Of a stretch of 32,000 nucleotides of DNA, positions 233-32,000 are shown in pieces. The position numbers were made by a program, and so were the translations under genes. The DNA is from Opitutales bacterium (lineage in GTDB: Bacteria > Verrucomicrobiota > Verrucomicrobiia > Opitutales > PNEW01), in contig CBDCNV010000002.1 of NCBI GenBank assembly GCA_965219535.1, positions 240,001-272,000 on the forward strand, read 5' to 3'. The notes under the pieces were generated by a model that saw only the letters and a list, made by a program, of their open reading frames with translations, was not told the origin of the DNA and made no database searches. Each line of letters starts with the position of its first letter. Position 1 is the stretch's first letter.

Positions 233-517
233 TTAAACTTTATAAGCCGCTTCATAATGCTTGATAGCCTCATCCCAAGACTTATCTTCGACCGCGCTTT
301 CCGCGTATTCTAATAATAGGTCGTATTTATTGTCCTTAATTGTTTTCGCGAGCCGGTATTTTCCCTGTTGCGCTTTAATCGACAGCGAGTCGATTTCAAA
401 TGCCTCCTCGTAGGCAACAAGAGCCTCATCGAAATTCCCTTTTTTCTCCTGTATTTTGGCCTTACTGAGGAGCGGATACACTTGGTCGATGGTCTGAGCA
501 CTGGTCAGGTTATTCAT
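233..517 (-). CDS. small TPR-like repeat protein
   Basis: The ORF track gives 233..523 with a TTG start. An ATG at 517 overlaps the upstream stop as ATGA (514-517). The sequence has TPR-like A/Y/E-rich helical pairs (GNFDEALVAYEEAFEID, KSWDEAIKHYEAAYK). Confidence 0.55.
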   Translation of the reverse strand: MNNLTSAQTIDQVYPLLSKAKIQEKKGNFDEALVAYEEAFEIDSLSIKAQQGKYRLAKTIKDNKYDLLLEYAESAVEDKSWDEAIKHYEAAYKV

Positions 518-1197
518 GGCCAATTCGTTGTCCGGTTGAAACCTGAGAATATCTTCAAATAGAGTGATGGTTGTATCTTTGTCACCTGAGGACAGCGCTT
601 TTTCCCCTTCAACTCCAATACCGACAATTTAGTGATAATCTTGTTTTTCATTGTACCAATACCGGCAGTAAAAGAATTTAATGCATCGTTGAATATCCCA
701 GCCTCATAAGCGTTTCGTCCTTCCTCACCATATTTCACCGCTATTTCAAATTCGAACGGGGCGAGCATGCGGATTTTTTCATTTTCTTCGATAAGAACGA
801 GAAATTCATCGTAACGGGTAGTTGCTTGCTCCTTGAGCGCTATGAGCGCTTTAAATTCCTCGATCAGTACCTTGATACGATCATATACTTCCATTGCCTG
901 AGGATAAGAACCGAAATCGATATATTTATCAGCCAATTCAAAGTCGTTTTCAATAACGAGGAGTTTGCGTAATAAGGTTTCATGTTCATCTGTGAGCTTT
1001 TTTACAATCTCAAGCGCACTGTTGGCTTCAACCTGAAACCGATCCACGCGTTCACGGCTGACGAACCGGTATTTCGTTCTTTCGGTGCTCAGGGGTGTAC
1101 TATCCAAAGCTTCCTGGGTGGCTTTGGTATCGTCATCCTGTAATGTTTCTTGCAAACCGGGAATGGGGATGAATAAAATTATCGCGATGGCGATCAA
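514..1197 (-). CDS. N-terminally membrane-anchored coiled-coil/TPR-like protein
   Basis: 227-aa ORF with a hydrophobic N-terminus (MIAIAIILFIPIPG) followed by a long charged helical region. Its stop is coupled to the next ORF by an ATGA overlap. Confidence 0.6.
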   Translation of the reverse strand: MIAIAIILFIPIPGLQETLQDDDTKATQEALDSTPLSTERTKYRFVSRERVDRFQVEANSALEIVKKLTDEHETLLRKLLVIENDFELADKYIDFGSYPQAMEVYDRIKVLIEEFKALIALKEQATTRYDEFLVLIEENEKIRMLAPFEFEIAVKYGEEGRNAYEAGIFNDALNSFTAGIGTMKNKIITKLSVLELKGKKRCPQVTKIQPSLYLKIFSGFNRTTNWP

Positions 1198-1484
1198 TAG
1201 ACCCCCACTAATGAAGATGATGGTTTTTTTGACTTTTTTTTCGGTTCTTTCTCCGGCGGAGAACCGCTAGTCTCTTCAGGGTTCCAATGAACGATCTTGC
1301 GACGTTTTACCCTACCTGTTCACTATCGTCACTCATCTCTCTATGCGATCAAATCCTCTTATTAGAGACACGCTTACCTGAATTATTTCAACCTAAATGT
1401 CTAATGATTATAATATTAAACAGTTTTTAGAATGCAATGTTTCGTTTTCTTTCCAAAAATTTACATTTATGAAAAGAAAACAAA

Positions 1485-6137: not shown

Positions 6138-7514
6138 CGGTACAACCAGGACATGGTTTACAGATTTAGATCAAGACATGGTTTACACTTTGTGAGGGAT
6201 GCTGAACGGTAATCGGGTTATATAGTTAAGTTAATGTTATGCGGTTTTAGAGGTTTGGCTGGCATTGTTGGGGCCGCAAGCGGCCCCAATGAAAGCAGCC
6301 GTTGAAAGGTCAATCTGACCGATTCTGAGAGTGGCAAAGTAAACATCGAAGTGTACCGTGTCTAGTGGTTTTAGTCCAACGCTCCAACCGGCGAGGGCGG
6401 TGGAGATAGGAATCTGGAAGCCATCGAGTTTGATAGACCCGCTTTTTGAGACCCGGCGAGTCATCAAATCATAGCTGATATCGGCAGGAGTGCCACCGTA
6501 AGGATGAGAGCTGTGCTGATAGATTTCAGAGGGCGTGCTCATGGCAAGAGCCGCATGGGGGCGTTCTTCATTGAAGGTCTTGCGCCACAGATCGAAGGCC
6601 ACCTGTTGGGTGCGAAGATCGTCCTGGGCATGTTTTTGCAACTCCTCTTTGATATCGCGATGGAGACGCTCATGGGCACCGTTATCCTGGGGTTTACCCG
6701 GACGTCCACGCTCGAGATTGATCCCTAAGGCCAGCCACCAGGCCGCCAGTTTGCTCAGGCCCAGGACCGCATTGGCACTGGCAAAGGGACTGCCGTTGTC
6801 GCTGCGGATGCAAGCGGGAAGTCCATAGCGTTCAAAGAGTTTTGTGAAGCATTCACGCACCGCTTCGCTACGGGCTGAACTGAGCACCCGCACCTCTAAT
6901 ACATAGCGGCTCCATTCATCCCGTACCGTCAAAGGTTCACAACGGTTGCCATCAACGGTGTGCCACCACCCTTTGAAGTCTACGCTCCACACTTCGTTAC
7001 AGCCACTGGCCTTGACGCTGCGGTAAAGGCGTCCGCTTTTTTGAGCGCTTCTGCGCCGACGCTTTTGCACCAGTCCCGCACGTTCCAAGACCCGTTTCAC
7101 GCTCGAGTCTGAGGGGGCCTTCCCGTAACGCCTCTGGTAAAGCTCGCGGATCTTGTAGGGGCCCCACGTCGGGTGATGATGCTTGAGTTTGATCAGCGTA
7201 CATACTACTGATTCGGATAGTTCCTGAACACTTCCATGCGGTCGGCGTGAGCGCTCGTGCAACCCCTCCATCCCTTCGCTCAGGAAGCGCTTCTTCCATT
7301 TATACCCTGTCGGTCGGCTGATCCCGTAGTCTTCACACAGCTCGTTCATCTTTACTCCCGGTTGCATCGATTCCAGGGCGAATTGGTATCTTTGGTCCAT
7401 TTTATTTGTTTCCTTCCATGACATCATACCCCTTACTTAGCATCCTTCTTTCTTTGGCAATCTGTAAAGGATGTCCTGAACCTTTTGTGTAAAGAATGTC
7501 TTGAACCTATACCG
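6138..7514 (-). mobile_element. IS481-family-like insertion sequence, apparently intact
   Basis: The ends are CGGTACAACCAGGACATGGTTTACA (6138-6162) and the reverse complement of TGTAAAGAATGTCTTGAACCTATACCG (7488-7514). Each end carries two copies of a TGTAAAnnATGTCyTG-type repeat (6147-6162 and 6172-6187; 7463-7482 and 7488-7507). GC content is visibly higher than the flanks. Confidence 0.7.
6237..7427 (-). CDS. DDE transposase (N-terminal HTH plus rve/integrase core), IS481-like
   Basis: 396 aa. HTH-like YGISRPTGYKWKKRF; core VWSVDFKG...IRSDNGSPF...GKPQDNGAHERLHRDIK...FNEERPH. Confidence 0.9.
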   Translation of the reverse strand: MMSWKETNKMDQRYQFALESMQPGVKMNELCEDYGISRPTGYKWKKRFLSEGMEGLHERSRRPHGSVQELSESVVCTLIKLKHHHPTWGPYKIRELYQRRYGKAPSDSSVKRVLERAGLVQKRRRRSAQKSGRLYRSVKASGCNEVWSVDFKGWWHTVDGNRCEPLTVRDEWSRYVLEVRVLSSARSEAVRECFTKLFERYGLPACIRSDNGSPFASANAVLGLSKLAAWWLALGINLERGRPGKPQDNGAHERLHRDIKEELQKHAQDDLRTQQVAFDLWRKTFNEERPHAALAMSTPSEIYQHSSHPYGGTPADISYDLMTRRVSKSGSIKLDGFQIPISTALAGWSVGLKPLDTVHFDVYFATLRIGQIDLSTAAFIGAACGPNNASQTSKTA

Positions 7515-7909
7515 ATTGAATTTACCCTCTCCTTTGACTTATAGCATTGTCACCTAAAACTCATGCGAGGTTTTAGTCTTGGTCGTGACCACGGAAACTG
7601 GGACAGTTGAAAAGTTAGTCTGGGTAACCTAAAAAGGACTCAGACAATGAAAGGCAAAAGATACACGACCGAAGAGAAGATAAGGATGCTGCGCCAGGCA
7701 GACAAAGGGAAAACGATCCTGGAAGCATGCCGCGAGAACAACATAAGCGAACAGAGCTTCCACCGCTGGAAGCGTGAGTTTGGGATGATTGATGTCAACC
7801 AAGCCAAGCGGATGAAGGAGCTCGAGAAGGAGAACGCGCGGCTAAAACGGATGCTCGCAGACAAGCTGCTGGGGATAGAGATTGTGCAGGAGACCCTCGA
7901 AAAAAATGG

Positions 7910-7932
7910 AAGATGTCGCTTACGCTCGGTAG
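7910..7932 (+). repeat. 23-nt micro-insertion (GAAGATGTCGCTTACGCTCGGTA type)
   Basis: It is absent from the homologous site in copy B (aaaaaaatgg^tgagc versus aaaaaaatgg[23 nt]taagc). The boundary is ambiguous by 1 nt. Confidence 0.7.
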
Positions 7933-8363
7933 TAAGCGCTGGGCACAAGCGGCAAGTGGCAAAGAGCCTTGTGGCTGAGGGCCAGTGTACGATGCGTGCA
8001 GCGTGCCGATACTTTCACCTGCACCGTTGCCCCTATGCGTATCGGGCCAAGCATCCGGATGCTTGGCTAACGAAACTGAAGGGGGCAGTAAGACGGTTAT
8101 CACGGCAATACGCCAGTTGGGGCTATCCGAAGATCACGAAGTTATTCAAGCACGAAGGCTGGCAAGTAGGTAAACGGCTCGTACAAGGTCTGCGAGGTGA
8201 ACTGGGCCTAGCGATGACCCCACGCAAACGAAGACGCCGGCGCCGGGGTGTCTGCACCGGGCAGCAGAGGAAGGGCGAAGATACCGGCCAGGTTTGGAGC
8301 TGGGATTTTATCCGCGATAAGATGGTTGGCGGTGGCAGTTTAAAATGCTGCCCGTGCTCGATG

Positions 8364-8408
8364 TACCGAGGAGCTGAAAGCGACGACACTCGAGCGAAGC
8401 GAAGACAT
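8364..8408 (+). repeat. 45-nt micro-insertion in OrfB of IS3 copy A
   Basis: TACCGAGGAGCTGAAAGCGACGACACTCGAGCGAAGCGAAGACAT. It is 44/45 identical to 10873-10917. Removing it restores LD-DPREC. Confidence 0.75.
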
Positions 8409-8534
8409 ACCCCCGCGAGTGTCGTGTGATCCATGTTGATCGCTATAGCAATGAGGAAACGGAGCGCGGTATCATGCAAAAACTGATCGACCGGCATGGG
8501 CCTCCACAATATATGAGTAGCGACAATGGATCGG

Positions 8535-8565
8535 TTCCGAGGAGCGAAGCGACGACATGCGAAGC
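8535..8565 (+). repeat. about 31-nt related micro-insertion in OrfB of copy A (boundaries uncertain)
   Basis: TTCCGAGGAGCGAAGCGACGACATGCGAAGC interrupts SDNGS|..|FIQSELRASLAAMKIKTLYIQP. The downstream transposase frame is shifted. Confidence 0.5.
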
Positions 8566-8609
8566 CATTTATTCAAAGCGAATTGCGAGCTTCGCTGGCT
8601 GCGATGAAA

Positions 8610-9838
8610 TGTACTAGCTACGACTTGATCTTACAGGTTACGCTGTGAGGAAGTATAAAATGTCAGCTAGCTATTGGTTCTTCATTGTCCTGGTTAAGGT
8701 GATCAACTTTTTGCGTTCAAAGCACCTTGTCCTCAAGGAAGGTCTGCATGGGGGTAGGCCCACAGCACATTTTACCCTGGTGAGTGCGTTCATGGTTATA
8801 GTGATACAGCCACTCGTCGAGATCTTTTTGTAACTGCCCTAAAGCACGGTAGATCTTCTTACGGAAGGTTACCTGATAAAACTCCTGGAGCACCGTTTTG
8901 TGGAAGCGCTCACAGATGCCATTGGTCTGGGGATGCTTCGCTTTGGTTTTGGTGTGATCAATATTATTGATCGCCAGATACAGCTCGTAAGGGTGACTGT
9001 AATGGCGTCCGCAATACTCGGTTCCACGATCGGTAAGCACCCGCAACAGTTCCATCGCGTGTTGCTCGAAAAAGGGCAAGACCTGATCGTTAAGCAACTC
9101 TGCGGCGGTGAGCGGGGTTTTCATCGTATACAACTTCGCGCAAGCCACTTTCGCATAAGTGTCGAGGAAGGTTTGCTGATAGATGCGTCCGACCCCTTTA
9201 AGCGTGCCAACATAGAAGGTATCCTGGGCACCCAGATAGCCGGGATGGGCGGTCTCAATCTCCCCGTGCAACTGATCACGCTCTTTCTTCTTCTGCAGGG
9301 CCGCCAACTGCCTCTCGGTTAAGACCAGCCCTTCTTCGGCCACTTTCTTTTCCAAGGCCTTCAACCGCAACGGGAAGGTTTGCAATTGATGGCTGATCCA
9401 CACACAACGCACTCCGGCCGGTGAGATCGCCAACCCCTCTTTCCTCAGTTCGTTGGCCACCCGCTGTTGTCCCAGCGCCGGGTTCTCCATCGCGAGCGTG
9501 ACCACCCGCTTTTCAATGCTCTCGTCAACGCGGTTTTTGAGGTTCGACTGGCTGCGACTTTTATCCAGCAGATTCTCGATTCCCCCGTCCTCGACCGCCG
9601 CTTTATACCGCTAAAAGGTATCGCCACTGAAGCCCATCACCTGACAGGCTTTTGAAACGTTGCCTGGCTCTTCAGCTAAATTTAATAATCCTACTTTATT
9701 TCTGATCATTTTTGCGTTTATTCTCATTGGGGTTACTCCTGTTTGGGGCAGCCCCCTAGGGGGCTGTTGTTGTTGTTTAACTTCCCACACAGAGTAACCC
9801 TTCTCTTGCTTCTGTCAGATCTTATCGTTACTAGTACA
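8610..9838 (-). mobile_element. IS481-family-like insertion sequence number 2, inserted into IS3 copy A
   Basis: Terminal inverted repeats are TGTACTAGCTACGA (8610-8623) and the reverse complement of TCGTTACTAGTACA (9825-9838). A perfect 7-bp direct repeat, GATGAAA, flanks it (8603-8609 and 9839-9845). Joining the flanks restores AAMKIKTLYIQP. Confidence 0.85.
8717..9727 (-). pseudogene. IS481-like transposase with one in-frame TAG (9611-9613)
   Basis: ATG at 9727, preceded by AGGAG. The reading is MRINAKMIRNKVGLLNLAEEPGNVSKACQVMGFSGDTF*RYKAAVEDGG..., which joins the 262-aa ORF (TDRGTEYCG...HPQTNGICERFH...YNHERTHQG). The stop sits where a Tyr (TAT) is expected. Confidence 0.85.
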
Positions 9839-10089
9839 GATGAAAATCAAAACCCTCTATATACAACCAGCAAGCCCTTGGCAGTACCGAGCGTTAGCGA
9901 CATCTTCCATGGATTCGTTGAGTCGTTTCATGCCCGTTTTCGCGAGCAGTGTTTAAACCGTCAACAGCTATGCACTTTAACCGAAGCAGGTGTGGTGATC
10001 GAAGATTGGTGCTGGCTTTACAATCATGTCCGTGCCCACTGCAGCCTCGGCAATTTCAGCCCACGCCACTTCGCTTTAAACATTTGGAG
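9839..10089 (+). mobile_element. IS3 copy A, 3' fragment, truncated where copy B begins
   Basis: It encodes IKTLYIQPASPWQ[insert]HGFVESFHARFREQCLNRQ...YNHVRAHCSLGNFSPRHFA. No copy-A right inverted repeat was found. Confidence 0.7.
9885..9907 (-). repeat. 23-nt micro-insertion, inverted relative to 7910-7932
   Basis: TACCGAGCGTTAGCGACATCTTC. Its reverse complement matches the 7909-7931 copy at 22 of 23 positions. Removing it restores PWQ-HGF. Confidence 0.7.
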
Positions 10090-10335
10090 TGACCCCCAAA
10101 AATCGTATCATTTACAGAGAGAGGTTATCGGGATAAACAGATAACCTCAATGAAAAGAAAAAGATACACAACAGAACAGATTATAACAATATTGCGGCAA
10201 GCCGATACCGGTAAAACGGTACAGGAAATCTGCCGTGGAAACAACCTGAGCGAACAGACTTTCTATCGCTGGCGTAAAAAATATGGCAATTTAGAACTTG
10301 CCGATGCGAAGCGATTTAAAGAGCTGGAAAAAGAA

Positions 10336-10362
10336 TTCACGAGCGCAAGCGAGAAGGCCTGA
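10336..10362 (+). repeat. about 27-nt related micro-insertion in OrfA of copy B (boundaries uncertain)
   Basis: TTCACGAGCGCAAGCGAGAAGGCCTGA is absent from the homologous KELEKENARLK site in copy A. Its length is a multiple of 3. Confidence 0.55.
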
Positions 10363-10430
10363 CATACCGAGCTGAAGAAGCTGCTCGCAGATCAAATGCT
10401 CAAGAATCAGGTAATGGAGGAAACGCTGTC

Positions 10431-10437
10431 AAAAAAA
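10431..10437 (+). promoter_or_regulatory. A7 slippery heptamer for -1 programmed frameshifting (OrfA to OrfB)
   Basis: tcAAAAAAAtgg. OrfB (MVSPKQKK...) is open in the -1 frame from 10437. This is the classic IS3-family arrangement. Confidence 0.6.
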
Positions 10438-11402
10438 TGGTGAGCCCAAAGCAGAAGAAACGAGTAGTAAAAGCTGCGGCTGAGAAAGGGTTGTGCTCGT
10501 TGCGGAGGGCTTGTGCTTATCTCAGCCTGAGTTGGTCAACGTTCAGTTACCGGCCCAAACAGGCCAGTGAGAAAGCTCAGCGGTTGGTCGAGCGGATTGT
10601 GAGCTTGTCCTGGAAACATCCCCGCTACGGTTACCGGCGCATCCGTGCCTTGCTGGTAAAGGAAGGCTGGACAACAAGCAGGAAGTTTGTCCAGGCGGTA
10701 CGACGTTCAGAAGGGCTGCAGGTAAAGCCCCCGAAAAAGGGCAGACACCGTCAAGGAGTCTCTACGGGGTCACCTACTAAAGCAAAGGGTCGCAATCACG
10801 TTTGGTCCTGGGACTTTGTCCATGATCGTACAGACAACGGCGGTCCATTAAAGATGATGACTCTAATCGATGTACCGAGGAGCTGAAAGCGACGACACTC
10901 AAGCGAAGCGAAGACATATACGCGTAAATGCCTGGATATCCGGGTCGCTCGTCAACTCACCTCAACCGATGTCCTCTCTGTGCTTAGCGAGGCCATTGAA
11001 GAGGAGGGACCTCCCAGCTATATCCGTAGTGACAACGGCAGTGAGTTCATTGCTCATCAAGTGCAGCAGTGGTTGTCCGGTAATAACATAAAGGCGATCT
11101 ATATCGATCCGGGCAGTCCCTGGCAAAACGGTTTCATCGAGTCGTTTCACAACCGCTTACGCGATGAGTGTTTGAACCGTGAAGTGTTGCTCAGCGTGGC
11201 TGAAGCGCAAGTGGTAATCGAACAATGGCGTCAGACCTATAACCATGAACATCCCCACAGTCGTTTAGGCTTCAAAAGCCCACAAGAGTTTGTCAGATTC
11301 CTTTCCGATCTTGGCCGCGTTCGGGCTACGCCCTCACTTCGCCAAGATCTCTCATATACATCAATCCTAAAACCATTAACACCCGGTAACTCTCTCACTT
11401 AA
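10437..11402 (+). pseudogene. IS3 copy B OrfB (DDE/rve), interrupted by the in-frame 45-nt insertion
   Basis: The 10437..10886 and 10980..11402 ORFs share one frame. VWSWDF...LKMMTLID[15 codons with TGA]DTRKCLDIRVAR...IRSDNGSEF...PGSPWQNGFIESFH...YNHEHPH. Confidence 0.8.
10873..10917 (+). repeat. 45-nt micro-insertion in OrfB of IS3 copy B
   Basis: TACCGAGGAGCTGAAAGCGACGACACTCAAGCGAAGCGAAGACAT, at the same position (after CGATG) as in copy A. Confidence 0.75.
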
Positions 11403-11461
11403 ATTGGTACGAAAAACGGGGTCCGATCACCTGGTTCCCGCTTTTTGAAGGATCCTATGCG

Positions 11462-12175
11462 ATGCAGGCCCGTACCGTAGAGATTGATCCTAACGGTTTC
11501 ACGTTTGACAATTGGTTCATTACCGATCCCATTACTTTAGTCGTCACTGAAGCCTCTTCGAACCTGGACTTTGTCGATCGGTCTTATGAAGATTTTATTG
11601 GTCAGGATGTGTTACCGAACGAGGAAAGTTTACTCGTCGCCTCGCTCGACTCCGGCCAGATTTCCCAAAGCACAGTGATTACAGAAATTTTCGAGACTCT
11701 TGAATCCCAGACTATTCAGGACGCGCTTATGGCACGCTTTCTTCTTACCGGCCAGTGGCCGTCACGCGATCTTCTCTTTCAGGACACCGAGGTGATTAAC
11801 GACAGCGGGTTGGGACAGCTGGTTGATTTTCTCATCCCCACCTTCCAAACGACATTCTTAAACAACGAGGAAGTTCCGGATGACTTATCGAGTGTCGAAG
11901 AGATTACCAACTTTTTCCAGATCGTCTTCACTAACAAGTATGGCGTTGCACCCGCCGGTGAACAGACCGCTACTGGTTTGACCAGGATTCAATTCTCCGG
12001 CGCGGAATTATTCCTCGAACGATTCGTAACCGACAACGATGTAACTTCTTTCGGAAATTCCAGCCGGACAACTATCCTTGGCATTCCGAATCCGCCAAAC
12101 GACCGCTTACGGGAATTTGCCGACGCCGGCTCTCTTCCAAATCAATCTATTAAGGATAACGCCTTCGACAACTGA
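11462..12175 (+). CDS. hypothetical protein, probably 5'-truncated by the IS cluster
   Basis: 237-aa ORF. The frame stays open upstream to the IS3 copy B end at 11429. No signal peptide or recognisable domain was found. Confidence 0.45.
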   Translation: MQARTVEIDPNGFTFDNWFITDPITLVVTEASSNLDFVDRSYEDFIGQDVLPNEESLLVASLDSGQISQSTVITEIFETLESQTIQDALMARFLLTGQWPSRDLLFQDTEVINDSGLGQLVDFLIPTFQTTFLNNEEVPDDLSSVEEITNFFQIVFTNKYGVAPAGEQTATGLTRIQFSGAELFLERFVTDNDVTSFGNSSRTTILGIPNPPNDRLREFADAGSLPNQSIKDNAFDN

Positions 12176-12176
12176 T

Positions 12177-13064
12177 GTGAGCAGTCTTGCGGCGGTTTCT
12201 ACTTTCGTATCCCAGGTTGATATGACACTGGCAGATCCACGTTACACGTCACGGTTCTTTGTTCCCTCCGCCGCTGCTGCTGAGGCCGCGACAGTCGCCG
12301 AAGACATTGTCCATCCGAACGGAAATGTTTATGACCAGGTATTAATGAGCACCGAGAAGGTAACGGTTCAGGCCGACCCGGGGCAAATCACTCGCGTCTC
12401 TTTCCTTGATGAAAATGATGATATCGTAATGGCAGAGTTTTCCGGATCGGGTGCGCTTGAAGTTTCAATTGACCCCGTAACATTCCAGAACGCGGCCCCA
12501 CCGGTGAAATACAACCAGCCTGATGTCAGTTATGCCAAGGGTCGTGCCCGGTTTAAAATTACTGACGCTAAAAGCGATACCTGGTTTTCCGTCTTTTCTC
12601 TTGGCTCACTTAACGTGGTAAATGCCAGCTTATTAAAGGATGGCGAGACTTATGACGGAATCGCCAATGTCGCCTCTTTGGAAATTATTAACTCGGAAGA
12701 AATGGGAGGTATACTGGCGGGTAATGCGGTCTTCTCCGATAACAAGCTGAATGTCGGTATTTCCGCCGGAAATGTTCGCGTCTTAAATCGTGTAATTATC
12801 GGTGACATAGATGCGAAGGAAACTGCATTTCCTGTTCTCTCCTTTGATCCCGGATCGCAGTTTGGTCAATTAATTGTCGCCGGGGGTGATTTGGTTCAGA
12901 CGAACGAAACCGCGATCAATCTTAATTCCAATAGTGTTGGTCCAGGATTCTCGAGCATCATTACCCAGGCTAATTTCAGGTCTAACGGTAGCCCGATGCT
13001 CGCCGCAACGATCGACGCCCAATTCAGCGTTGCAAATCAACCCATCATTATCGCGGTAGAGTAA
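12177..13064 (+). CDS. hypothetical protein (start uncertain: GTG 12177 or ATG 12222; the ORF is open from 12078)
   Basis: 328-aa ORF overlapping the previous ORF by 98 nt in another frame. A strong terminator follows it. Confidence 0.5.
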   Translation: MSSLAAVSTFVSQVDMTLADPRYTSRFFVPSAAAAEAATVAEDIVHPNGNVYDQVLMSTEKVTVQADPGQITRVSFLDENDDIVMAEFSGSGALEVSIDPVTFQNAAPPVKYNQPDVSYAKGRARFKITDAKSDTWFSVFSLGSLNVVNASLLKDGETYDGIANVASLEIINSEEMGGILAGNAVFSDNKLNVGISAGNVRVLNRVIIGDIDAKETAFPVLSFDPGSQFGQLIVAGGDLVQTNETAINLNSNSVGPGFSSIITQANFRSNGSPMLAATIDAQFSVANQPIIIAVE

Positions 13065-13204: not shown

Positions 13205-13280
13205 CCTAACCGCTTAATCGCATTCACGCTTTATCGCTTTATCGCTTTATCGCATCCACACGTTATCGCATCCACGCGTT
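13205..13280. repeat. ATCGC-rich dispersed/tandem repeat tract
   Basis: (CGCTTTAT)x3 at 13228-13251, then a (CGCATCCACrCGTTAT)-type unit twice. The tract is homologous to the reverse complement of 23812-23870. It abuts the RND stop codon. Confidence 0.6.
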
Positions 13281-23871: not shown

Positions 23872-24126
23872 CCCTCTTGTCATTGCGAGGAACATAGAGA
23901 CAAAGCAATCCAGGGGTATTTCAATACGTGACCGTCATTCCCTTGTAATAGATGATGTGGCTGCGCAACCGAGGAGTGACATATACCATAAGTACAAGAG
24001 CGAAACATCTTATGAATATCCCAACATCCATTGATTTACTTTACACACCCGGCTTTCCCCTGGAATGGAAGATGTCGCTGCGCTCGGTAGCCGCGTCGCA
24101 TTGCTCCTCGCAATGACAATATGAGG
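23872..24126 (+). mobile_element. MITE-like element, copy 1
   Basis: Terminal inverted repeats are CCTCTTGTCATTGCGAGG and CCTCGCAATGACAA(TAT)GAGG. It aligns along its length with 29020-29256. It carries a nested 22-nt insertion. Confidence 0.7.
24068..24089 (+). repeat. 22-nt micro-insertion nested in MITE copy 1
   Basis: GAAGATGTCGCTGCGCTCGGTA. MITE copy 2 lacks it (cccctgga^ttgccgcgtc). It matches the 23-mers at 7910 and 9885 apart from the centre. Confidence 0.65.
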
Positions 24127-29019: not shown

Positions 29020-29256
29020 CCCCTTCTTTTCATTGCGAGGGAGACTGACAGCCGACTGCGGCCATTCGGGGGGATATCAATACGTAACCGACATTCACCT
29101 GGAATGGATGATATCGTCATGCAGCCGTGGGGCGACATCTTCCAAAAGCACACAAGCGGAACGTCATATGAAAATCCTAACATCTATAGATCTACATTAC
29201 GCAACCAGCATTCCCCTGGATTGCCGCGTCACGTTGCTCCTCGCAATGACAAGAGG
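29020..29256 (+). mobile_element. MITE-like element, copy 2
   Basis: Terminal inverted repeats are CCTTCTTTTCATTGCGAGG and CCTCGCAATGACAAGAGG. It is collinear with copy 1. It lies about 130 bp downstream of the rRNA operon terminator. Confidence 0.7.
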
Positions 29257-29430: not shown

Positions 29431-29545
29431 ACCTGGCAATAACCTACTCTCGCACAGCTTTCGCTGCACTACCATCGGCGGTCGAGGGCTTAACGGTCGT
29501 GTTCGGGATGGGAACGTGTGTTTCCCCTCACCAATAATCACCAGA
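29431..29545 (-). rRNA. rrf: 5S ribosomal RNA
   Basis: The reverse complement reads CTGGTGATTATTGGTGAGGGGAAACACACGTTCCCATCCCGAACACGACCGTTAAGCCCTCGACCGCCGATGGTAGTGCAGCGAAAGCTGTGCGAGAGTAGGTTATTGCCAGGT, which contains the canonical 5S motifs. Confidence 0.9.
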
Positions 29546-29675
29546 GTGAATATCTGCGAGCACCGCATGTATTCCATTAAGCCTTATCGCCAGAGCACAA
29601 TGCTCAGTGATAGATAAAATCAGTCTAATTGCCTGTGAGTAATTAAACGCCTGACGTTAAGCGAAGAACATATTC

Positions 29676-32000
<2,325 letters not shown>

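Follow-up and report, generated by a model that had tools for sequence, protein, structure and literature searches.

The present work concerns a window of 32,000 nt from an Opitutales bacterium (contig CBDCNV010000002.1, positions 240,001 to 272,000) and the very short repeats that interrupt the insertion sequences (ISs) and miniature inverted-repeat transposable elements (MITEs) it contains. Alongside ordinary genes, encoding an RND efflux system, DsbD and an EF-G paralogue, the window holds an IS cluster, two copies of a MITE of ~240-250 bp and part of an rRNA operon (Table 1). Seven micro-elements lie within the IS and MITE DNA. A sequence-only reading of the window had proposed one family of ultra-small repeats nested in larger ones, naming inserts at 8535-8565 (TTCCGAGGAGCGAAGCGACGACATGCGAAGC) and 10336-10362 (TTCACGAGCGCAAGCGAGAAGGCCTGA) next to 23-mers and 45-mers. 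Both inserts lie where it placed them, the IS and MITE contexts are both seen, and all seven inserts proved genuine, with matching empty sites in near-identical IS3 copies and intact relatives. The sizes had to be corrected from the empty sites to 24/25, 29, 33 and 44 nt (net gains of +22/23, +27, +31 and +42), and three features had been overlooked: a mini-hairpin core, exact recurrent target sites, and numerous IS copies polymorphic for the inserts.

Table 1. Micro-elements, their hosts and neighbouring features in the window (cores of micro-elements in square brackets)
Feature	Position	Strand	Context and remarks	Sequence or ends
X33 ('31-mer')	8535-8567	+	IS3 copy 1, SDNGS-E-F codon; two GCGAAGC mini-hairpins	TTCCGAGGA[GCGAAGC]GACGACAT[GCGAAGC]CA
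X29 ('27-mer')	10336-10364	+	orfA of IS3 copy 2; net +27; in-frame TGA	TTCACGA[GCGCAAGC]GAGAAGGCCTGACA
X44 ('45-mer')	8364-8407	+	IS3 copy 1, I/L-D-E-Y codon	TACCGAGGA[GCTGAAAGC]GACGACACTCGA[GCGAAGC]GAAGACA
X44	10873-10916	+	IS3 copy 2, same I/L-D-E-Y codon; 43/44 identical to copy-1 X44	
Type A 25-mer	7907-7931	-	directly after A7 slippery run of IS3 copy 1	TACCGA[GCGTAAGC]GACATCTTCCA
Type A 25-mer	9885-9909	+	IS3 copy 1, P-W-Q-N-G codons	TACCGA[GCGTTAGC]GACATCTTCCA
Type A 24-mer	24066-24089	-	within right terminal repeat of MITE copy 1	TACCGA[GCGCAGC]GACATCTTCCA
IS cluster	6147-11429		IS481-like element, IS3 copy 1, nested rve-type IS, IS3 copy 2	
IS3-family element, copy 1	7586-10089	+	pseudogene; split by nested IS 8610-9838; 3' end cut by copy 2; four micro-elements inside	
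Nested rve-type IS	8610-9838	-	GATGAAA target duplication; no micro-element	TGTACTAG...CTAGTACA
IS3-family element, copy 2	10090-11429	+	at least 13 near-identical copies in same organism	TG...CA
MITE copy 1	23873-24126		terminal repeats; module grammar same as micro-elements	TTGTCATTG-CGAGGA-hairpin-GAC..GC-AATCCAGGGG
MITE copy 2	29020-29256		terminal repeat empty; in the core, type-A-like arms as a degenerate inverted pair	arms ending GCGACATCTTCCA at 29132-29144
23S and 5S rRNA genes (part of rRNA operon)	29431-32000	-	5S rRNA gene at 29431-29545	

The evidence for insertion comes from the comparison of filled with empty sites. An exact look-up of the 149-residue open reading frame (ORF) that ends inside the 45-mer showed that this organism carries the same IS at many further sites (22 contigs, 37 index blocks), and a second look-up with a 70-residue orfA fragment gave a picture that agreed; the exact look-up of ORF 7647-8429 returned no match, and relatives were found by a homology search. 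Counted over 13 distinct copies of the copy-2 type, 98-100% identical and all from the same organism, X44 is present in 13, X29 in 11, X33 in nine and a further element, X37, in one. X29 has no counterpart in L192 and L194, otherwise 98-99.8% identical, nor in six intact relatives, and its empty site reads GAAAAAGAA·AA·TACCGAG (L192, L194, L208-L213; here and below, dots enclose the bases exchanged upon insertion). The X33 site is empty in the window's copy 2, L188, L193, L197 and L208-L213 and filled in nine other copies. The six intact relatives (93.6% nucleotide identity, orfA of 88 and orfB of 306 residues) lack every insert and hold the ancestral sites, among them GATCGATG·AA·TATACG for X44; against intact transposases the 45-mers stand out as a 14-codon gap, as X44 of copy 2 does against intact OrfB.

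The inserts of copy 1 and of the MITE have their empty counterparts as well. In L216, which is related to copy 1, the 31-mer is present but the 45-mer (empty site GATG·AG·TAC) and the two 23-mers are missing. L040 and L214/L215 carry the insert behind the slippery run, which copy 2 and L216 lack; the P-W-Q-N-G site is empty in L216 and copy 2, and another family member lies 3 nt away in L188 and L214. Across loci, 23 MITE ends are filled with the 23-mer and ~13 are empty, MITE copy 2 being an empty one.

Filled and empty alleles are therefore found among 98-100% identical IS copies within one organism; the sequence-only reading had suggested looking for such a presence/absence polymorphism between strains. 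Three haplotypes of X29 and X33 were seen (27+/31-, 27+/31+ and 27-/31+), which requires recurrent gain, loss or conversion, and because near-identical copies are polymorphic, an old insertion kept by selection is excluded. An assembly artefact was ruled out by the same inserts in the window and in several independent assemblies, and chance or low complexity by shuffles and by taxon-restricted matches.

At the level of single bases, each insertion swaps out the 1-2 nt preceding a T (AA, AG or CA). X44 converts GATCGATG·AA·TATACG into GATCGATG·TACCGAGGAGCTGAAAGCGACGACACTCAAGCGAAGCGAAGACA·TATACG (net +42), X33 replaces the AG of GGCAGTG·AG·TTCATT with TTCCGAGGAGCGAAGCGACGACATGCGAAGCCA (net +31), X37 that of CGCGATG·AG·TGTTTG with TACCGAGGAACGTAGTGACGACATAGCGAAGCGCTCA (net +35), X29 puts TTCACGAGCGCAAGCGAGAAGGCCTGACA in place of the AA of its site (net +27), and X25 (the '23-mers', TACCGAGCG(TA/TT)AGCGACATCTTCCA) follows the same rule in replacing AA or CA. 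The elements start with T(A/T)C, finish with CA and sit in one orientation at the target; neither terminal inverted repeats nor a target duplication appeared in the empty/filled pairs. The CCGAGGA subtype targets TG·AR·T and the others N·AA or CA·T, and the reconstructed empty IS has three sense-strand RTGAGT sites, which coincide exactly with those of X44, X33 and X37. An excision footprint of the MITE was rejected, the inserts having no MITE termini (TTGTCATTG), as was integration by the DDE transposase of IS3, given the absent target duplication and a CA at one end only.

The same sites are struck again and again in different elements. X44 occupies I/L-D-E-Y in IS3 copies 1 and 2, two IS types whose DNA flanking it is only ~55-75% identical; X33 occupies S-D-N-G-S-E-F in four ISs (copy 1, the copy-2 family, a third IS in L188, and L216), and the 33-mer of copy 1 recurs unchanged at the homologous site in some copies of a different IS3 element and is missing from others; X37 is found at R-D-E-C of two IS types, that of L194 and a fourth one in L188; and the 23-mer follows the slippery run in three (copy 1, L040 and L214/L215). 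IS3 hosts of the same element are otherwise 55-75% identical, and identity falls from 98-100% to ~60% exactly at the element ends. Because of this drop at the boundary, homologous conversion between divergent ISs is unlikely.

Some departures from exact copies were also recorded. In L214/L215, an older lineage, the 33-mer at ~2900 (homologous to window 8535-8567) has lost 15 nt, exactly one GCGAAGCGACGACAT unit between the two GCGAAGC repeats, which suggests slippage between hairpin repeats; the 23-mer and 45-mer of the same loci carry several substitutions. At L039 3100-3260, a type A unit with ~35 nt upstream lies between direct repeats of ~25 nt (TTCCTTGCACGCCCGTCCGGGTCAT / CTTCTTGCACGCCCGTCGGGGTCAT), outside the element rule.

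The anatomy of the elements is equally regular. A 5' arm, T(A/T)CCGA or T(A/T)CCGAGGA, is followed by one or two very short hairpins, each of them succeeded by GAC(A/G), and the 3' end is ...CA. In the organism of the window the hairpins are GCGNAGC or GCGNNAGC, and seven of the window's eight cores fit one of these exactly (GCGTAAGC, GCGTTAGC, GCGCAGC, GCGCAAGC and GCGAAGC three times). When all fetched loci were scanned for CCGA-X-GACATCT, X was nearly always a hairpin, of unrelated sequence (GCGNAGC, GCGNNAGC, GGAC-GAA-GTCC, GGGC-GTA-GCCC, GGC-GAAA-GCC, GTCCCGCA-GT-TGCGGGAC or GTTCCGC-AATC-GCGGAAC). The same MITE position is occupied by different hairpins, with the flanking bases of the slot conserved, and the same slot recurs in the MITE terminal repeat as CGAGGA-X-GACGA. 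At least three terminal Watson-Crick pairs are found in 8 of the 22 distinct X not forced by the search pattern (expected 0.39; maximum 4 in 2000 shuffles), X37 shows a compensated GC-to-AT stem change, and formal pair counting in the 11-nt hairpin class gave 84% paired cells versus 12-53% with the partner slid. The structural claim rests on comparison between hairpin classes: stems in relatives are 4-8 bp, and the window copies would, by their position, form 2-bp stems closed by a sheared G-A pair. Both d(GCGNAGC) and d(GCGNNAGC) are known as DNA mini-hairpins that melt at 70-76 C and resist nucleases, with a stability not explained by current thermodynamic models; r(GCGAAAGC) melts at 39 C versus 76 C for the DNA form (PMC13037366). 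This difference favours DNA as the form that matters.

As for abundance, the skeleton that the sequence-only reading had drawn from the inserts is real and above chance in shuffled controls: GCGACATCTTCC has 4 matches versus 0.13 expected, and TWCCGAGGAGC, with at most one mismatch, 7 versus 1.07. In 169 kb of the same organism, from loci chosen for holding the IS, so that the figures are not genome-wide, the CCGAGGA-type (type B) 5' module occurs 27 times versus 0 expected, always in IS3-family genes and always after G, and type A eight times versus 0.5 expected, twice in IS3 genes and six times in MITEs. The suspected bias to transposase genes holds for one subtype, CCGAGGA, in this organism. 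The sequence-only reading had noticed no insert in housekeeping genes, and indeed no instance was found in those of the window or of the 169 kb; the likeness to the MITE, also real, lies more in the terminal repeat (CGAGGA-hairpin-GACGAAGC) than in the core, where it had first been placed.

The family extends beyond this organism. An exact 21-22-nt type A pattern gave 64 matches (one genome per species, 596 Gb), ~48 of which are concentrated in five Opitutales and one Puniceicoccaceae metagenome-assembled genome (MAG), as suits a genome of the Planctomycetes-Verrucomicrobia-Chlamydiae (PVC) type; the remainder, in G+C-rich genomes, look like chance. In the six MAGs, type A lies mostly at MITE ends, also at the edges of tandem hexamer/heptamer repeats and in arrays of several subtypes (L066 4850-5350); contexts of the elements include (GATCGG)n, (AACCCTG)n and (AATCCGC)n. 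One type A unit, at L016 7539-7560 (minus strand), reads in frame (LPSASDIFQS) within a long ORF of at least 581 codons for a HEAT-repeat/CxxCH protein. In a metagenome scan for CCGAGGA, about one third of 120 loci among the matches listed are true family members, of mid G+C content, prefixed by T(A/T) and with a second unit that is conserved and ends in GAATAACA; among these same matches they come from marine, freshwater and soil sources and are mostly intergenic, lying also in arrays, in the T-loops of pseudo-tRNAs and in IS66-, IS110- and IS5-like transposase genes. Removal of 50 nt from L155 restores a 1581-nt ORF. Tandem repeats of 140 nt beside a tRNA gene, each a pseudo-copy of the tRNA 3' end, were seen in L090, L157 (130 and 270), L114, L150, L112 and L170, the T-loop (GGTTC·AA·ATCC) being interrupted by a two-unit micro-element of 46-47 nt.

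Taken together, we consider it probable (roughly three chances in four) that the inserts form a lineage-wide family of non-autonomous micro mobile elements of 24-44 nt with site-specific integration in IS3 genes. Outside cyanobacteria, they rank with the smallest mobile elements of site-specific insertion that have been seen. What was observed directly is the insertion itself, its recurrence, the target and the architecture of the hairpins; the elements integrate in one orientation at short specific targets, the dinucleotide before a T being replaced. Preferred targets fall on conserved codons of IS3 transposases, namely the Glu of IDEY, DNGSEF and RDEC, those of PWQN, and the one that follows the frameshift run, and because target and conserved codon coincide, divergent IS3 elements are struck repeatedly at homologous positions and inactivated. 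The elements would then be carried along with the IS and MITE copies they occupy. We tentatively suggest that an HUH/Y1 enzyme (RAYT- or IS200-like) mobilises them in trans by way of a single-stranded DNA intermediate, a route favoured because the cores are DNA-specific mini-hairpins, the tag-hairpin-tail order resembles that of CGTC/TGTC repetitive extragenic palindromes (REPs), and there are neither inverted repeats nor duplications. We infer a selfish role, that of a parasite of parasites, and not a host function.

Several observations weigh against this proposal, beginning with the choice of loci, made in part by the motif or by the IS, which keeps the enrichment figures from being genome-wide. 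The IS3 bias may be local, the CCGAGGA subtype being mostly intergenic in other organisms. No mobilising gene was identified within the ~215 loci: Y1/RAYT-like genes occur in 3 of them, none of these genes is flanked by micro-elements, and the three are bounded by their own GGGGTCAGGC inverted repeats. The loss of two target bases is without precedent in HUH transposition. Pairing of the element with its target flanks, as a guide would show, was no better for own than for mismatched pairs, and orientation shows no bias relative to local GC skew (27 plus, 25 minus; Fisher p = 1.0), although an IS200/IS605-like lagging-strand mechanism predicts one. Covariation within the 11-nt hairpin class is weak, with one pair showing double changes, and nearest-neighbour folding of the window inserts yielded no significant structure (z = +0.15 to +1.5), a null result that is expected because such models miss the stability of mini-hairpins.

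The three Y1/RAYT-like genes just mentioned lie at L029 6650-7630 (minus), L113 ~430-1410 (minus) and L176 4867-5865 (plus) and encode proteins of 326-333 residues (YHVINRGNYR...HFHLALETP...YIHLNP) between inverted repeats GGGGTCAGGC...GCCTGACCCC. In L176 only, a micro-element adjoins the gene, 47 nt outside the left repeat.

A bolder form of the proposal, which we regard as doubtful, is that a sequence-addressed system writes nuclease-resistant mini-hairpin elements into conserved IS3 codons, one site per subtype. Such a system might be a homing hyperparasite of ISs or a silencing device of the host or of a rival; it would use a single-stranded DNA intermediate and a chemistry that removes two target bases, unlike the described transposase classes. 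We give a minority chance to a kind of integration chemistry, or of role, that would be new.

Unlikely, in our judgement, is spread through RNA, in which a reverse transcriptase would copy transcripts of the elements back into DNA, with target-primed synthesis explaining the 2-nt loss. Such a route has reportedly been proposed for the small dispersed repeats (SDRs) of cyanobacteria, which the micro-elements resemble in their size and hairpin, in being nested and in lying within tandem hexamers/heptamers. Where reverse transcription is target-primed, staggered nicking typically leaves a target deletion that is small and fixed, and in IS3 genes the majority of elements run in the sense direction and hence are transcribed. 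However, the cores match a DNA-specific consensus whose RNA form melts far lower, the 23-mer that follows the slippery run lies antisense to the transposase gene, in the neighbourhood of the elements no gene for a reverse transcriptase was seen, and Rfam gave no family match at gathering thresholds or at E<=10.

Copy-and-paste by recombination is very unlikely to account for the family. Gene conversion between IS copies, or repair patches templated from MITE ends, would need no dedicated transposition; many identical IS copies offer ample homology, part of the X29/X33 haplotypes could arise in this way, and X33 shares 18 nt, CGAGGAGCGAAGCGACGA, with the MITE terminal repeats. Yet the same element is found in ISs whose flanks share identity runs of at most 6-7 nt, with the sharp drop at the boundary described above, and its ends (T..CA) are fixed in contexts as unrelated as MITE ends, tandem repeats, pseudo-tRNA T-loops and IS66-, IS110- and IS5-like genes, whereas random templated patches should have variable end points.

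Hardly credible, finally, is the idea that the inserts are tolerated or functional parts of the IS and that those with an in-frame TGA throttle the transposase by read-through or bypass, which would explain the continued spread of the IS; X44 is indeed in 13/13 sampled copies, no intact copy at >94% identity was found, and the net lengths of X29 and X44 are divisible by three, but TGA is a regular stop in this genome, X33 (+31), X37 (+35) and the 23-mers shift the frame, X33 strikes the catalytic-Glu motif in 9/13 copies, matching take-off and landing codons are missing, and the intact relatives do without every insert. The sequence-only reading had been struck by three inserts that keep the frame and yet bring a TGA. 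This impression is not supported: the two 45-mers are one element type at one site, and the frame is kept in two of six element types (net lengths of 27 and 42 versus 22/23, 31, 35 and 23, so that four of six shift it). TGA terminates 5/11 well-supported genes and is thus an ordinary stop here. Ribosomal bypass or recoding of TGA was ruled out, as there is no matching take-off/landing codon pair and the only GAC near the X44 3' end is out of frame.

How an IS with an orfB stop in 13/13 copies could become so numerous has three possible answers. The elements may have swept pre-existing copies by repeated site-specific insertion, which fits the occupancies of 13/13, 11/13, 9/13 and 1/13; broken copies may have been mobilised in trans; and conversion among identical copies may have contributed.

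In IS3 copy 1, orfA and orfB are joined into a 260-codon ORF (7647-8429) by a 23-nt insert together with the loss of 1 nt from the A-run. Two relatives, P0125 and P0127, are annotated with single ORFs of 383-385 residues and no 23-nt insert, which may be homopolymer errors in low-coverage long-read assemblies. A role of the 23-mer as the maker of a constitutive OrfA-OrfB fusion was rejected: copy 1 needs the extra 1-nt deletion, the same insert yields a stop in L040, and the relatives are fused without it.

The surroundings deserve a few further remarks. The nested rve-type IS has an in-frame TAA at ~9612, between an N-terminal HTH part and a 262-codon integrase ORF, and is either a pseudogene or frameshift-dependent. 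At the end of the rRNA operon, ~175 nt separate MITE copy 2 from the 5S rRNA gene upstream of it. From 11427 onward, the window is matched at 99.9% identity by contigs of two metagenome assemblies, which lack the IS cluster. A large gene for a surface protein with PKD, CARDB and Big domains, truncated by the IS cluster in the window (11427-13064), is intact in the metagenome strains (L001 1-2539); the window strain therefore has an IS-associated insertion or rearrangement at this place. Downstream of the RND pump gene, a tandem octamer (CGCTTTAT)n at 13218-13270 differs in length between strains otherwise 99.9% identical, by +16 nt in L001 and +20 nt in L002.

The movement of very small repeats such as REPs and SDRs has been an open question since their discovery, and most families come without clean empty/filled pairs. 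Here, a single natural population offers at least a dozen near-identical IS copies that differ only by elements of 29, 33 and 37 nt at exact positions. These yield base-precise junctions, a defined target (TG·AR·T) and a defined substrate (arm, DNA mini-hairpin and CA end), and the mechanism consequently becomes directly testable. ISs can themselves be riddled and inactivated by smaller mobile DNA, which bears on models of transposon load, and in IS annotation a transposase gene found in two or three ORFs may not be simple decay. The DNA mini-hairpin motif, for its part, gains a possible natural role in mobile DNA. We found no published description of the TG·AR·T replacement, of the assignment of subtypes to codons or of the mini-hairpin core, and text searches for the arm and MITE-end sequences met no matching paper.

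It remains to compare the micro-elements with systems already known. Rickettsia palindromic elements (RPEs) are small palindromic repeats inside ORFs (PMC3733652); RPEs are longer, in frame in functional genes and translated, whereas micro-elements mostly break transposase genes. The palindrome-associated transposable elements (PATEs) of IS200/IS605 are alike in lacking terminal inverted repeats and target duplication, in carrying hairpins close to their ends, in inserting with a set orientation next to a short specific sequence, and in having a single-stranded DNA hairpin as the recognised form. PATEs, however, are 100-300 nt long, spare the target bases when they insert 3' of a tetra- or pentanucleotide, and show strand bias, none of which is seen in micro-elements. 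DNA mini-hairpins are known, from Hirao and co-workers, in single-strand origins of phages and plasmids and in engineered oligonucleotides (PMC13037366), and not as the core of a dispersed mobile repeat. The absence of terminal inverted repeats and of duplication also sets micro-elements apart from MITEs.

REPs come closer. The sequence-only reading knew of nothing similar in PVC genomes, but Opitutus terrae has been described as REP-rich, with GTAG-tagged REPs, some of them intragenic (PMC3733652). Like REPs and REPINs (Di Nocera et al. 2013, PMC3733652; Bertels & Rainey 2011, PMC3116915), micro-elements have a short hairpin whose stem and loop vary, next to it a conserved tag that is unpaired, and a short tail; both kinds also form inverted pairs and clusters, with occasional intragenic copies. 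REPs are imperfect palindromes of 20-40 nt and carry a GTAG or CGTC (TGTC) tag at one end, and CGTC REPs have stems of 8-9 bp that start with AT, and CCA tails (PMC3733652); the GAC(G/A) after every micro-element hairpin is the complement of CGTC/TGTC, but stems are of 2-8 bp and start with G, and the tail is TCGGTA or TCCTCGGTA. Most micro-element stems (2-4 bp), the 5' arm TACCGA(GGA), the CA end and site-specific insertion within IS genes are all unlike REPs. In the strict sense, micro-elements thus belong neither to the CGTC families of REPs nor to MITEs or IS200/IS605 derivatives.

The comparison with SDRs, already made in the sequence-only reading, was an apt one. SDR1-8 of heterocystous cyanobacteria, attributed to Elhai et al. 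(2008; see PMC4390886 and PMC3116915), are said to measure 21-27 nt, with SDR5 inserting at an exact position in a short motif. They share with micro-elements a small hairpin of differing sequence, nesting in MITEs and in each other, an association with tandem heptamer-type repeats, and no known enzyme. Correspondingly, type A is 24-25 nt long with ~48 exact copies in six related MAGs, unrelated hairpins stand between constant arms (structure being kept through sequence change between length classes, weakly within one), and elements are nested in MITE terminal repeats and tandem-repeat contexts. Micro-elements are likened to SDRs by description and not by sequence, and they differ in targeting conserved IS3 codons, in replacing two target bases, in their two-hairpin forms of 29-44 nt and in the DNA mini-hairpin consensus; since their hosts are Verrucomicrobiota and not cyanobacteria, they would not be an SDR family in the strict sense. 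SDRs are nevertheless the closest analogue of the micro-elements, and tagged REPs the closest structural class.

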